A stretch of DNA of 61,765 nucleotides from Stx2 converting phage I: the sequence record AP004402. One strand, 5' to 3'. This document shows positions 15,001-18,000 of this stretch, piece by piece. The stretch's first letter is position 1; every line of letters starts with the position of its first letter. The position numbers were made by a program.

Positions 15001-18000
15001 ATGGTCGGGTCAGTGGATATGAAGGCAAGGATAAAAATCCACAGGGCATTAATATCAGGTATCGCTACGAGATAACGGATGATTTTGGCGTTATCACCTC
15101 TTTTACATGGACGCGTTCTCTCACTAACTCACAGACATTTATTGATGTGCAGTCAGCCGATCATACCAGGAAGATTAAGAATCCGGCAGCTTCTGCCAGA
15201 ACGGATATCAGGGCGAATTACTGGAGTCTGTTAGCGGGGCCTTCATGGCGGGTTAATCAGTACATGAGTTTATATGCGATGGCAGGGATGGGCGTTGCTA
15301 AAGTTAGCGCTGACCTGAAAATTAAGGACAATATTAACAGTAGTGGCGGATTTTCTGAAAGCAACAGCACGAAAAAAACCTCCCTTGCGTGGGCTGCAGG
15401 TGCACAGTTTAACCTGAATGAGAGTGTTACACTGGATGTGGCTTACGAAGGTTCCGGCTCTGGCGACTGGCGCACGAGTGGCGTTACTGCTGGCATTGGC
15501 CTGAAATTCTGACCTGTATCCGGTAACCGTTTACTACCCGCTGTGATGGCGGGTTTTTTATTGCCCGTACAGGGCAAAAACCGTAAATTATGCGTGGGTG
15601 CCTTTCGGCTGATGGCTGGAGGGTGAACCTGAAGGCCTGATGTGGAAAGGCCCCGAGTCAACTTAACGTTAACCCGAGGCCCTAACACTTCGTACCTTAA
15701 GCAAGTAGAAGGTTAGCGCCTCTCTGTAAAAGGAGTCAAGCGCTATGTCGCAAAAATCGCTTATCACCGTCACAATTTGCATGACGGTTATCTTCACCAT
15801 CTGGATGTTGCACGGTTCACTGTGTGAGTTCCGGCTGAATTTGTGGGGAGCGGAGTTTGCGGCGTTCTTACAGTGTAAGCAGTAGGAAAACCGCGACGGG
15901 GACGAGAGTCCCCGTCAACTGGTTGCTGAGGTTCAGCCGATATGGCACCCGTTTCAGGTGAGAGAATGAACGATAAAATTCTCTGGTATATGCAGCGTGT
16001 TGTGAGAAATTCCCGCAACCCTGAATTTATGAATGAAGTTAAAGACGCCTGCCTTAAAAAGCAGGCGTTTTGTTTTGAGGCACCTGATGGCTTTTTGGTG
16101 CTGCGTTCTGTGCTCAGTGCTGATGGTATCCCTTATGTTCTGGTGTTGCTGGGCGTGTGTACGGGGAGTAACAGCGTTGAGCGTTACCTGCCGGAGGTGA
16201 AGACATTAACCCATCTGGCTGGCGGACGCTGGGCTGAGTTCCATACGGCAAGGCGGGGATTTATCCGGCTGGGAAAACGACTGGGCTTTGAGCGAATGCC
16301 GGATGATGAGGATGGCTTCATGGTGTTCAGGATAGCGGTCTGACTGCTACAGTTTTCATCATTGTGTTTAAACCAACATTGTAATTCACATTCTGACCCT
16401 GCTCCGGCAGGGTTTTTTGTTATCCAGGGGGCCATTATGGGTGGAAGTAAAGGCGGTGGTGATACCAAAGTAAAACCAACAGCAGCGCAAATAGCACAGG
16501 AAGAAGTGGCCTGGAAAGGGTGGCAGGATTACAAAAATATCCTCCGCCCGGCTGAAGATAACTTCATGGAAAAGGTCGATGACCTGAACAGTGAGCAGCA
16601 GTACGACAATATTGCTGGCACCACAAATCTGGGGTATCAGAAACAGTTTGGCGAAGCACGGAAGGAGCTTGCGGGTAATCTTGCTCAGTCCGGCGTTGAC
16701 CCATCCAGTGGTCGTTTTAATGCGGTAATGAATGCGAACCAGAGTGACCAGGTAACCGGGCAGATTGACACAACCACACGGGGGCAGGTATCGCAGGCAG
16801 ATAAGTATGTTGCCGGGCTACAGGATGTTGCTGCTCTCGGTTCTGGTCAGAAGGCGGATGCGTTACAGAGTTTTAACTCTCTGGCAGACAGCAGTCTGGC
16901 AAAAGCTAAATCGGATGCACAGGCGGCGTTTACGAAACAGCAGGGGCGAGCCTCTCTTGTTGGCGCTGGTCTGGGTGCGGCAGGTGCATATGCGATGCAT
17001 AAGGCTGGCGGTAGCGGAGGAAGTGGCGGTGCTAAAACACCTGGCACCGGCGCTAATGCCATTCAGCATCAGGCTCAGAACTGGAGACTGTAATTATGGA
17101 GTATGGCAAATACGAAACTCTCGCAAGGGCTGGTTATTCAGGAGCAGACCGCCCACAGGGTGACTGGCAGACGTCAGCAGCGCTGACACGCCAACAATAC
17201 GACGACTGGCGAACCAGATATTTGCCCCGCGTGGCAAGGCTGGCTGACCTTGGGGAGAACAACAGTCTGATGAATGCACAGCTTGCACGGGTGGGAGGCC
17301 TTGCCACTTCCAGTCTCCGTACAGCGCAGATGGCGCAGGATAACCAGATGGCGAGATACGGGGTAAACCGCCCGGATAATCCCGACAGTAATACGCTGGG
17401 GTTACGTAATGCCCTGGCAATTGCTGGCGCGAAAAATGGTATCCGTGAAGCCGAACAGGATCGCCAGATGAATATTCTGACGGGGGCTTCTGCACCGGCA
17501 AGACAGAAACTGAGTGTTGGCGGCCAACTGGTGGCAGCGTAAGGGGGCAATATGGGATACGGTTTACTGGATATTGCAAATCAGTCGCGGCGTGAGGCAT
17601 TACAGGGAATAAGTGACGCAGACAGACGACGTGAAGAAATTGAGGCTGCGAACAAACAGATGGCGGCGCAACAGAAAGCGCAGAACAAGCAGAATATCGG
17701 TACGGGCATTGGTACGGGGGCGGCTATTGGCGCATCCGTTGGTGGTCCTGTTGGTGCTGTTGCTGGAGCAGTAATTGGCGGCATTGCTGGTTCTTTGTTT
17801 TAAGGAGTGGTGAATGAGCGGATTTGCACAGGGGTTACTTGCCGGATTCAGCACCGTTGACCAGGCAATGACCCGTCGTAAGGAGCTTGGTCTGCGTGAA
17901 GCACAGCTTGCCCGGCAACAGAAAAATAACGAGCGCGATTTTGAGTTTGCGCAGTCTCAGTTTGAACATAATAAAAACGTTGATCAGCGGAACTTTGATT

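Follow-up and report, generated by a model that had tools for sequence, protein, structure and literature searches.

A Hok-family toxin gene downstream of lom

The sequence analyzed here (the window) is the whole 61,765-nt stretch of Stx2 converting phage I (AP004402), a 933W/Sp5-type Stx2 phage. Downstream of lom, an ORF encodes a peptide of 46 amino acids, MSQKSLITVTICMTVIFTIWMLHGSLCEFRLNLWGAEFAAFLQCKQ, with an ATG start codon at position 15745 and a TAG stop codon at 15883-15885 (Table 1). An earlier note on this DNA had described this ORF as having a good Shine-Dalgarno (SD) sequence; the ORF was recovered with exactly matching coordinates, and the SD is AAGGAG. The suggestion of the note that the product is a Hok-family toxin was borne out by profile searches: the peptide matched the Pfam profile HOK_GEF (PF01848) with 33.2 bits, as compared to a gathering threshold of 22 (E=4e-8), with residues 8-44 aligned to profile positions 6-42 of 42, and it is covered by PHROG 251 with E=2.8e-24. 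A single N-terminal hydrophobic stretch, LITVTICMTVIFTIWML, fits the layout of Hok/Gef proteins (~50 aa), and the Hok/Gef motifs include C27 in SLCE and C44 in LQCKQ, which correspond to the conserved C31/E32 and to position 48 in the family logo. M1, C27 and C44 are invariant across the homologues (C27 and C44 in 31 relatives). In total, 56 homologues were found in E. coli, Shigella and Salmonella, and wherever the source provides a name this is "Hok/Gef family protein", which is also the RefSeq name of the peptide itself (WP_000078907.1).

The ORF had been described as unlisted, which holds for an ORF track with a 60-aa cut-off and for the 1999 annotation of 933W, but the gene is annotated by both PGAP and pharokka. 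A chance ORF is ruled out by the Pfam and PHROG matches and by the synonymous-only variation described below. The ORF at 15745..15885 is thus confirmed as a genuine Hok-family membrane toxin gene, and its reading as a Hok-family type I toxin is supported. Table S2 of a recent preprint (Escalera-Maurer et al., 2026; 10.1101/2025.08.07.668861) lists the identical 46-aa peptide as 72_1589 (plasmid LRP157), and 42 of 45 tested Hok homologs are reported there to be toxic upon induction in E. coli; 72_1589 is counted among these, since it is not one of the three non-toxic homologs named there. As described in the same source, the toxicity assay used the CDS only, with an artificial SD on a multicopy plasmid. 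The toxin gene is therefore real but largely known, being named in public annotation and its peptide reported as toxic. A literature search on hok in 933W/Stx2 phages, lom morons and WP_000078907 recovered no paper on the lom-adjacent locus, and the available supplements of the ciprofloxacin EDL933 transcriptome and proteome do not mention the peptide.

Table 1. Features of the lom-adjacent cassette, its neighbors and the other hok locus of the phage.
Feature	Position	Strand	Remarks
Intrinsic terminator of lom, upstream cassette boundary	15536..15560	+	8-bp stem (15536-15554) followed by TTTTTTATT
Predicted hok promoter	15561..15589	+	-35 TTGCCC 15561-15566, 17-nt spacer, -10 TAAATT 15584-15589
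Predicted hok-like mRNA, conserved core	15596..15951	+	From 5' GGGUGCC to 3' GGCACCC box
5' tac-like element	15596..15612	+	GGGUGCC UU UCGGCUGA; two mutually exclusive pairing partners in predicted folds
mok frame remnant	15640..15716	+	ATG 15640: 8 codons (MWKGPEST*); GTG 15642: 24 codons
Predicted Sok-like antisense RNA	15645..15702	-	~58 nt; 5' single-stranded tail, 16-bp hairpin, UUUCC
Hypervariable patch, target of predicted antisense 5' tail	15690..15704	.	Alignment diversity
Predicted antisense promoter	15710..15739	-	-35 TTGACT 15739>15734, 18-nt spacer, -10 TAACCT 15715>15710
hok Shine-Dalgarno sequence	15730-15735	+	AAGGAG, 9 nt 5' of the hok ATG
hok-like toxin gene	15745..15885	+	46 aa; Pfam and PHROG matches, PGAP annotation
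GC-rich hairpin past stop codon	15894..15917	+	10-bp stem
fbi-like fold-back box	15933..15950	+	UCAGCCGA UAU GGCACCC; complementary to mRNA 5' end
Downstream gene, 933W L0129	15966..16343	+	125 aa, phrog_610; PHROG match
Next intrinsic terminator	16395-16418	+	Stem 16395-16414 and T-run; ~445 nt past fold-back box, beyond L0129
hokW-mokW-sokW, published type I toxin-antitoxin system of 933W/Sp5	28482..28869	-	Rfam, 933W annotation

Boundaries of the cassette and its neighbors

The toxin gene is part of a conserved cassette of ~390 bp (15561..15951) that is organized like a hok/sok locus. The boundaries were set where similarity is lost between the Stx-phage, P2-prophage and Salmonella contexts; similarity between these differing contexts begins just past the lom terminator and ends at 15951. 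All large ORFs from position 1 to 27530 are located on the plus strand, and the cassette is thus in sense orientation with the late operon. The 933W record notes lom as expressed in the lysogenic state.

The terminators that had been placed on both sides of the toxin gene were recovered in our scan, each as a stem followed by a T-run, but the idea of an autonomous unit between them does not hold, because the interval also contains the 125-aa phrog_610 gene and there is no terminator after the fold-back box. A Pfam search with this downstream ORF gave no match, and phrog_610 was its sole match. In the P2-type relatives, a GC hairpin and a T-run directly follow the fold-back box, and it is the place of this terminator that is occupied by L0129 here; a scan of the plus strand from 15951 to 16050 identified no terminator-like site. 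With the next terminator so far downstream and beyond another gene, the classic activation by 3'-trimming maps poorly onto this locus.

Predicted transcripts and their folding

The predicted hok promoter matches the consensus at 8 of 12 positions, and transcription is predicted to start near 15596, as read from the sequence. Our promoter scan, which had a threshold of 9 of 12 matches, listed neither the sense nor the antisense promoter of the cassette, both of which are weak matches to the consensus. TTGCCC and TA[A/G]ATT are retained in relatives with unrelated upstream flanks.

The predicted mRNA has a minimum free energy (MFE) of -155.4 kcal/mol (z = -6.5, 100 shuffles), with its ends paired. 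The earlier note had called for folding of the leader in search of tac- and fbi-like elements, and a 5'/3' fold-back does close the predicted mRNA: the tac-like element pairs with the fbi-like box in both the MFE and the centroid full-length fold, and it is predicted to re-pair with GGAAAGGCCCC at 15646-15656 in a 3'-truncated RNA or in the nascent leader. The closing helix is unchanged in 45-46 of the 47 unique relatives and is thus conserved without covariation, being nearly invariant, while the hairpin past the stop codon displays two compensatory pairs among relatives (15902/15909 and 15903/15908). The hok SD is partly paired, with a mean probability of being unpaired of 0.32 in the full-length fold and 0.47 in the truncated fold. 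A scan of the whole window against Rfam at gathering thresholds gave no match at 15561..15951. A permissive local scan aligned the hok/sok leader model RF01794 to 15596-15758 on the plus strand with 35.6 bits, which is below the gathering threshold of 59 (E=2.2e-6); the match extends end to end over model positions 1-157 and finishes at the hok start.

It had also been predicted that a Sok-like antisense RNA and an overlapping mok-like frame should lie in 15560..15760. A candidate antisense promoter and hairpin were indeed identified there, but of mok only a truncated remnant. The predicted antisense RNA folds with -35.4 kcal/mol (z = -5.7) and covers nucleotides ~50-107 of the mRNA, as compared to nucleotides 51-121 for the annotated sokW of 933W. 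The -35 hexamer of its putative promoter overlaps the end of the hok SD; AGGTTAGCGCC of this promoter is almost invariant in the relatives, and the TTG of the -35 is kept in all of them. The complement of the -10, AGGTTA, is also present in hokW at homologous columns of the Rfam model, and judging from primer YO-421, the promoter-less sokW mutant of Takada et al. (PMC8621323) would have lost the same TAACCT hexamer. The target of the predicted antisense 5' tail is hypervariable: among 26 unique Stx-phage-type copies of the cassette, diversity is 0.35 in this patch and 0.00-0.20 in the other 15-nt bins, most of which are below 0.10.

The mok frame

The mok frame is essential for hok translation in plasmid R1. 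An R1-like mok in the -1 frame is present in relatives of the cassette: in 13 of the 53 unique relatives, the ATG equivalent to that at 15640 is followed by an open frame of 61-79 codons, which extends past the hok start as far as +83 or +137. In the allele studied here, the longest upstream ORF is the remnant read from GTG 15642, which stops at the TAG at 15714-15716, 28 nt upstream of the hok ATG, and no upstream frame overlaps the hok start, with stop codons in all three frames at 15698, 15714 and 15727. Compared to the relatives with an intact mok, the reading frame of this allele is shifted by indels near 15663 and within 15690-15704. With no mok across the hok start, translation would either begin at the AAGGAG SD itself or be aided by the 24-codon remnant.

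Selection and distribution

Purifying selection on the 46-aa peptide is strong: the same amino acid sequence is encoded by nine DNA alleles, and all 10 variable sites among them are synonymous, which has a probability of ~2e-7 if substitutions were neutral; the mok frame is intact in some of these alleles and broken in others. Comparison of the toxin ORF to the P2-type and Salmonella relatives yielded a pN/pS of 0.3-0.45. The cassette was found in 197 phage records and in 1675 of 5426 E. coli genomes, and P2-like prophages carry the same cassette at their end, adjoining ogr.

A second hok locus in the phage

The suggestion that another Hok locus is present at 28545..28700 proved correct: the peptide encoded there scores 81.1 bits against the Pfam profile and its leader 113.5 bits against the Rfam sok model. 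The 933W annotation names hokW, mokW and sokW at this locus, and the primers and the HokW sequence given in the hokW-sokW study (PMC8621323) match it. The lom-adjacent ORF is thereby ruled out as hokW, to which its peptide is 37% identical (13 of 35 aligned residues; clusters 35 for HokW and 72 for the 46-aa peptide at 60%). Since the published hokW-sokW is the other locus, 15561..15951 is the second hok cassette of the same phage, unstudied as a locus; the accessible text of PMC8621323 does not mention it, and of the two loci only hokW has been the subject of experimental work at the locus level.

Common to both loci are the complementary fold-back sequences GGGUGC (5') and GCACCC (3'), a hairpin that follows the stop codon and, at a homologous position in the leader, the hexamer TAACCT as antisense -10, which is a predicted one in the lom-adjacent locus. 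The loci differ in that HokW has an in-frame upstream MokW extension (70 aa) while the lom-adjacent locus has no overlapping mok, and in that hokW is located on the minus strand of the early-left arm while the lom-adjacent locus is located on the plus strand of the late operon. The 5' tails predicted for the two antisense RNAs would not be exchangeable, with crossed pairings of -17 and -14 kcal/mol as compared to -33 and -38 kcal/mol for the cognate pairings.

Proposed mechanism and alternative explanations

We conclude that the segment 15561..15951 probably is a hok/sok-type type I toxin-antitoxin cassette, a moron-like insert between lom and the next late gene. From the sequence, the folds and the homology, its promoter would drive an mRNA starting near 15596, the 5' end of which would fold onto the 3' box into a compact, poorly translatable form. 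The convergent promoter overlapping the hok SD would yield the short antisense RNA (15702>15645), which is expected to pair with the leader so that the hok mRNA is kept silent or is cleaved. Upon removal of the 3' box, or its displacement by a competitor, the 5' end may re-pair with 15646-15656 and the leader would open. More speculatively, since the cassette is in sense with the late operon, Q-antiterminated late transcription in induced cells should yield sense RNA in large excess and run into the antisense promoter, and Hok might then be released late in infection, in parallel to the reported role of hokW.

A different explanation is that the locus is silenced or decaying, a passenger cassette in which the toxin ORF is intact, mok is interrupted and Hok is never translated natively; passenger loci of this kind have been reported for several of the hok copies on the E. 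coli K-12 chromosome. With mok broken here and in most relatives, the allele could be translationally silent, and the predicted folds have most of the hok SD and AUG in base pairs. The available supplementary files of the RIBOseq small-gene study of Sakai do not contain the peptide, and the preprint 10.1101/2025.08.07.668861 notes that chromosomal hok copies may be inactive. However, an untranslated toxin should gain replacements and stops, while variation is synonymous only across alleles with broken and intact mok frames alike, and the promoter, the antisense promoter and the fold-back boxes are all conserved in a cassette that is widespread among phages and E. coli genomes. We therefore consider a decaying locus unlikely. 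Far less probable still is a structured non-coding transcript or sRNA pair that regulates phage or host genes, with the ORF being incidental. Shuffled sequences fold far less well than the region as a whole, and the last 12 codons (~15850..15885) are without synonymous change in the relatives tested separately, with the exception of one site in S. enterica diarizonae, which suggests that the RNA itself is constrained there; one further third-position site, 15861, differs between alleles with an identical peptide. Against this explanation, the ORF passes the curated Pfam threshold, the peptide is reported as toxic in the preprint, and the first 34 codons vary only synonymously among close alleles and with the low pN/pS given above relative to distant ones. 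RNA constraint within the coding region is in any case an established feature of hok mRNAs and no argument against coding.

As to function, the role of the cassette may lie in abortive infection, superinfection exclusion or prophage addiction of the lysogen rather than in aiding lysis and phage release, although we find this somewhat doubtful. It would fit with a predicted promoter of its own right after the terminator of lom, a gene noted as lysogen-expressed, and with the presence of the same cassette beside ogr in P2-like prophages. The sense orientation in the late operon and the precedent of hokW favor a role at induction, and hok genes show no enrichment near defense systems according to the accessible parts of 10.1101/2025.08.07.668861.

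Taking the two loci together, we tentatively offer a broader scenario, which as a whole is rather unlikely to be correct in every part: 933W/Sp5-type phages would carry two non-cross-reacting Hok systems, of which the lom-adjacent one is independent of Mok, with Hok translated from its own SD and released as the convergent antisense promoter is overrun and disturbed by Q-dependent late transcription, redundantly with HokW. The hypervariable antisense-target patch would then reflect selection that insulates co-resident hok/sok copies from each other. Deletion of hokW-sokW had a partial, two-fold effect on phage release (Takada et al., 2021; PMC8621323), and such redundancy, if true, would explain why this deletion alone only halves release. 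The medically important 933W/Sp5-type Stx2 phages contain two Hok toxin cassettes and not one, and the only functional study (PMC8621323) deleted one of the two. The lom-adjacent locus is furthermore a natural hok cassette in which the toxin is under purifying selection, mok is broken and there is no terminator of its own, which bears on the generality of the R1 regulatory model. The nature of the element is not affected by either point.

Comparison with known systems

The closest characterized Hok protein is HokA of E. coli K-12, with 46% identity and the shared motifs WM..SLCE and E.AAFL.CK. HokA (NF007290) is also the best NCBIfam match of the peptide, but this match, at 38.4 bits, falls well short of the equivalog cutoff of 89, which rules out an orthologue of HokA; the peptide has 46 residues with a QCKQ C-terminus, as compared to 50 residues in HokA. 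The likeness to PndA suggested in the earlier note was not upheld, since the string given there as PndA, FTWMIRDSLCELHIKQESYELAAFLACK, is the sequence of HokA in Table S2 of 10.1101/2025.08.07.668861. PndA of R483/R16 belongs to the same Pfam family and has the SLC motif in common, but is ruled out as the closest relative by its identity of 33% (PndA of R483).

In the preprint, the DNA allele tested as 72_1589 differs from the phage allele by synonymous changes, and 72_1621, of the P2-prophage type and 76% identical to the 46-aa peptide, was also cloned and is among the toxic homologs; the preprint states that Mok, Sok and the mRNA elements are outside its analysis.

Compared to hok/mok/sok of plasmid R1, the locus is located in a phage rather than on a plasmid, its peptide is 28% identical to Hok, mok is truncated, there is no terminator after the fbi-like box, and the Rfam score is below gathering. 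In common with R1, it encodes a small membrane toxin and is predicted to have an antisense promoter overlapping the SD region of the toxin gene, as well as an mRNA that is closed by pairing of its two ends and the 5' end of which finds another partner after removal of the 3' end.

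A Hok-family toxin gene downstream of lom

The 46-codon ORF downstream of lom is almost certainly a Hok-family toxin gene. It had been described in an earlier note as a Hok/PndA-type toxin, and its position, length and Shine-Dalgarno sequence (AAGGAG, 9 nt upstream of the ATG) were exactly as described there. The family assignment held in profile searches, with matches to Pfam HOK_GEF (33.2 bits versus a gathering score of 22, E=4e-8) and PHROG 251 (E=2.8e-24). The motif read as PndA is actually that of HokA, to which the peptide is 46% identical, as compared to 33% for PndA of R483, 33% for HokW and 28% for Hok of plasmid R1. 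HokA was also the top NCBIfam match, at 38.4 bits, for which the equivalog cutoff of 89 is far higher. A search of 5.8 billion proteins recovered 56 relatives, mostly of 46 aa, from E. coli, Shigella and Salmonella, and every name given to them by the sources was "Hok/Gef family protein". Among the relatives there is no variation at M1, C27, C44 or the A.FLQCK positions of the C-terminus (A39, F41-K45).

The ORF is without annotation in the classic 933W, Sakai and Morioka records. It is annotated as "MokW-like host killing" in PV189404, and PGAP names the peptide "Hok/Gef family protein" (WP_000078907.1) in O157:H7 genomes. In a 2026 preprint that catalogued 1264 Hok peptides (10.1101/2025.08.07.668861), the exact peptide is 72_1589, cloned as plasmid LRP157 and in a high-abundance cluster (Table S2). 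Toxicity on arabinose induction was observed for 42 of 45 homologs; 72_1589 was tested and is not among the three named exceptions (19_179, 60_1482 and 69_1540), so the peptide is reported toxic. The preprint found two homologs in 3.5% of hok-carrying phages, and by its own statement Mok, Sok and mRNA elements were outside its analysis. This is an unremarkable member of its class, already present in public annotation and, with toxicity data, in a recent catalogue.

From 87 related loci that we fetched, 54 unique copies of the cassette region were obtained. The identical peptide is encoded by 9 DNA alleles with 10 variable sites, all 10 synonymous (P ~2e-7, assuming that ~21% of random changes are synonymous), and the window differs from any one of these alleles by up to 7-8 synonymous changes. 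Together with pN/pS values of 0.3-0.45 against the P2-prophage and Salmonella types, this pattern indicates that the peptide is under purifying selection. The final 12 codons (15850..15885) are nearly unchanged, the sole synonymous change in separately tested relatives being at one site in S. enterica diarizonae, which implies an RNA-level constraint additional to that on the protein. Position 15861 is one more variable third-position site in these codons, among the identical-peptide alleles.

Distribution of related copies

Of 5426 complete E. coli genomes, 1675 carried related copies with 80-100% identity, and as many as 8 copies were found in a single genome. The cassette region is 100% identical to 933W (AF125520 45415-45875), VT2-Sakai/Sp5 and dozens more Stx-converting phages, which identifies the window by its sequence as a 933W/Sp5-type short-tailed Stx2 phage. 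In total, 197 phage records matched the cassette region; the published hokW-sokW locus is less widespread among deposited phages, with 77 records. In addition to the matches in the table, the Rfam scan of the window identified AsxR and three tRNAs; the sRNA-Xcc1, STnc100 and lambda cIII thermometer matches are usual for an Stx2 phage, perhaps barring sRNA-Xcc1.

A copy of the cassette with about 84% identity (WP_000078920.1), here called P2-type, is located directly after ogr at the ends of P2-like prophages. Several IMG/VR contigs stop exactly at the hok stop codon of this copy, and the ones checked are about as long as a P2-like prophage (~33-37 kb), which indicates that the P2-type copy is a marker of the prophage boundary. 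Copies with 76-100% identity in assemblies labelled Xanthomonas pisi (an 857-bp contig), a Planococcaceae MAG and Vagococcus sp. (loci L004, L005 and L007) most likely reflect E. coli or Salmonella DNA that contaminated these assemblies or was mis-binned into them.

Features of the cassette, the window and the P2-type copies (window positions unless a locus is named)
Feature	Position	Strand	Description
Hok-family ORF	15745..15885	+	ATG 15745, TAG ends 15885; 46 aa: MSQKSLITVTICMTVIFTIWMLHGSLCEFRLNLWGAEFAAFLQCKQ
Weak sigma-70 promoter, predicted	TTGCCC 15561-66, TAAATT 15584-89	+	17-nt spacer; read from sequence
5' element	15596-15612	+	GGGUGCC-UU-UCGGCUGA; complementary to 3' box
3' box	15933-15950	+	UCAGCCGA-UAU-GGCACCC; complementary to 5' element
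GC-rich hairpin	15894-15917	+	3' of stop codon; two compensatory pairs among relatives
Antisense promoter, predicted	TTGACT 15739>15734, TAACCT 15715>15710	-	18-nt spacer; read from sequence
Antisense RNA, predicted	15702 to 15645	-	~58 nt; from promoter position and fold
phrog_610 gene (933W L0129)	15966-16343	+	Entered straight from 3' box in Stx phages
sok/hok leader	28869..28695	-	Strong Rfam match, the only sok/hok one in window-wide scan
sRNA-Xcc1	31221..31309	-	Rfam, 69.1 bits
lambda cIII thermometer	39647..39705	-	Rfam
STnc100	54522..54781		Rfam, 207.7 bits; abuts AsxR, opposite strand
P2-type copy	L091 4168..4308		E. coli ST131 chromosome NZ_OX637961
Further P2-type copies			L053, L058, L061, L073, L078, L081, L082

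Cassette anatomy and predicted antisense RNA

Homology, conservation and folding make it very probable that the ORF is part of a cassette of the hok/sok type, in which the mRNA folds back on itself and an antisense RNA acts as regulator. When copies were aligned across unrelated settings (Stx phages, where the cassette follows lom; the P2-like prophage end, just after ogr; and the Salmonella chromosome), their similarity had its limits at 15561 and 15951, within which the layout reads as that of a hok/sok locus. Both promoter hexamers are retained in relatives with differing upstream flanks, and the predicted transcription start (~15596) is the point where the alignment to the Rfam leader model begins. 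That model scored 35.6 bits at this leader, under the gathering score of 59, and the standard Rfam scan therefore missed it.

The helix between the 5' element and the 3' box closes the predicted fold of 15596-15953 in both its MFE and its centroid form (-155.4 kcal/mol, z = -6.5) and is unaltered in 45-46 of 47 unique relatives. For an RNA that lacks the 3' box, or for the nascent leader, the 5' end is predicted to pair with GGAAAGGCCCC at 15646-15656 as an alternative. In R1 hok, the tac, fbi and ucb elements pair in mutually exclusive ways, and the alternative 5' pairing predicted here is of the same kind. The post-stop hairpin is terminator-like also on the minus strand (15917..15894, with the tail CGGTTTTCCT), where it could halt antisense transcription coming from downstream.

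The -35 hexamer of the antisense promoter overlaps the end of the hok Shine-Dalgarno sequence, and the predicted RNA begins with a short unpaired tail, followed by a 16-bp hairpin and UUUCC (-35.4 kcal/mol, z = -5.7). Among 26 unique Stx-phage-type copies, variation, including length changes, is concentrated in a 15-nt patch at 15690..15704 (diversity of 0.35, versus 0.00-0.20 in other cassette bins). This hypervariable patch is the predicted target of the antisense 5' tail, and its variation looks like diversification of antisense specificity.

Departures from the R1 paradigm and activity of the allele

The earlier note had predicted a Sok-like antisense RNA and an overlapping mok-like frame in the leader, and had named two terminators that flank the ORF. 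A predicted antisense promoter and hairpin are located there and a terminator scan recovered both terminator-like sites, but a mok frame across the hok start is absent from the window allele because each of the three frames has a stop (at 15698, 15714 or 15727). All in all, the observation was confirmed and its interpretation was essentially right. In 13 of 53 unique relatives, the ATG equivalent to 15640 opens a frame of 61-79 codons that continues past the hok ATG to +83 or +137, in the -1 frame relative to hok, as in R1. Two frame-shifting indels (near 15663 and within 15690-15704) break this frame in the window allele, where ATG 15640 opens only 8 codons and the 24 codons opened by GTG 15642 end 28 nt short of the hok start. 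Alleles that retain an intact mok frame and alleles that lack one alike conserve the identical Hok peptide, so that Mok seems dispensable in this cluster, or its loss is recent.

No terminator was found directly 3' of the fold-back box in the window, where the next one is at 16395-16418; in P2-type copies, the 3' box is followed by a GC hairpin and a T-run. Weak homology to the P2-type cassette continues over 15951..15985 through AGAATGAAC(G/A)A, a stretch that precedes the terminator in P2-type copies and supplies the ATG (15966) of L0129 in the window.

With neither mok nor terminator, it is less certain that the lom-proximal allele is active; the rival reading is an intact but silent toxin ORF. 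The exclusively synonymous variation among identical-peptide alleles argues in favor of an active allele, and we consider a silent ORF unlikely. Between 1 and 27530 every large ORF, lom and the lom-proximal ORF among them, is on the plus strand, in the direction of the late operon. The sense orientation in this operon and the hokW precedent suggest that Hok may be released after induction, when late transcripts reading through the cassette would both sequester the antisense RNA by titration and collide with its promoter. Prophage addiction and phage exclusion are equally testable alternatives for the role of the cassette.

Comparison with hokW in the same phage

The 933W record annotates hokW, mokW and sokW at the other Hok locus of the window (28482..28869, minus strand). 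A study of Sp5 hok-sok (Takada et al., PMC8621323) has as its subject HokW, a 51-aa protein with the N-terminus MKQQKAM; its primers match 28482-28869 of the window, and the sections covered here make no mention of a second hok locus. As far as found, no publication describes the two hok cassettes of 933W/Sp5, the Mok-less, terminator-less layout of the lom-proximal copy, or its hypervariable antisense-target patch. The presence of two cassettes matters for the interpretation of the hokW deletion phenotype.

Like the lom-proximal cassette, the hokW locus has a 5' GGGUGC / 3' GCACCC pair, a post-stop hairpin, and AGGTTA at homologous leader columns. The annotated sokW (mRNA 51-121, 933W record) and the predicted lom-proximal antisense RNA (mRNA 50-107) occupy matching places. 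A promoter-less sokW mutant lost antitoxin activity (Takada et al., PMC8621323), and we infer from primer YO-421 that TAACCT was replaced by GAGCCG in this mutant. Of the indirect evidence for a Sok-like promoter at the lom-proximal locus, the identical TAACCT at the homologous position is the strongest. The predicted antisense 5' tails are not interchangeable, in that crossed combinations pair at -17 and -14 kcal/mol and cognate ones at -33 and -38 kcal/mol, so that the two systems should be independent of each other. An in-frame upstream ATG extends the hokW ORF to 70 aa (28545..28757, minus strand), which corresponds to MokW of the 933W record. The Mok arrangement therefore differs by lineage: in that of hokW, Mok extends the toxin in frame, and in the relatives of the lom-proximal cassette it overlaps the toxin in the -1 frame.
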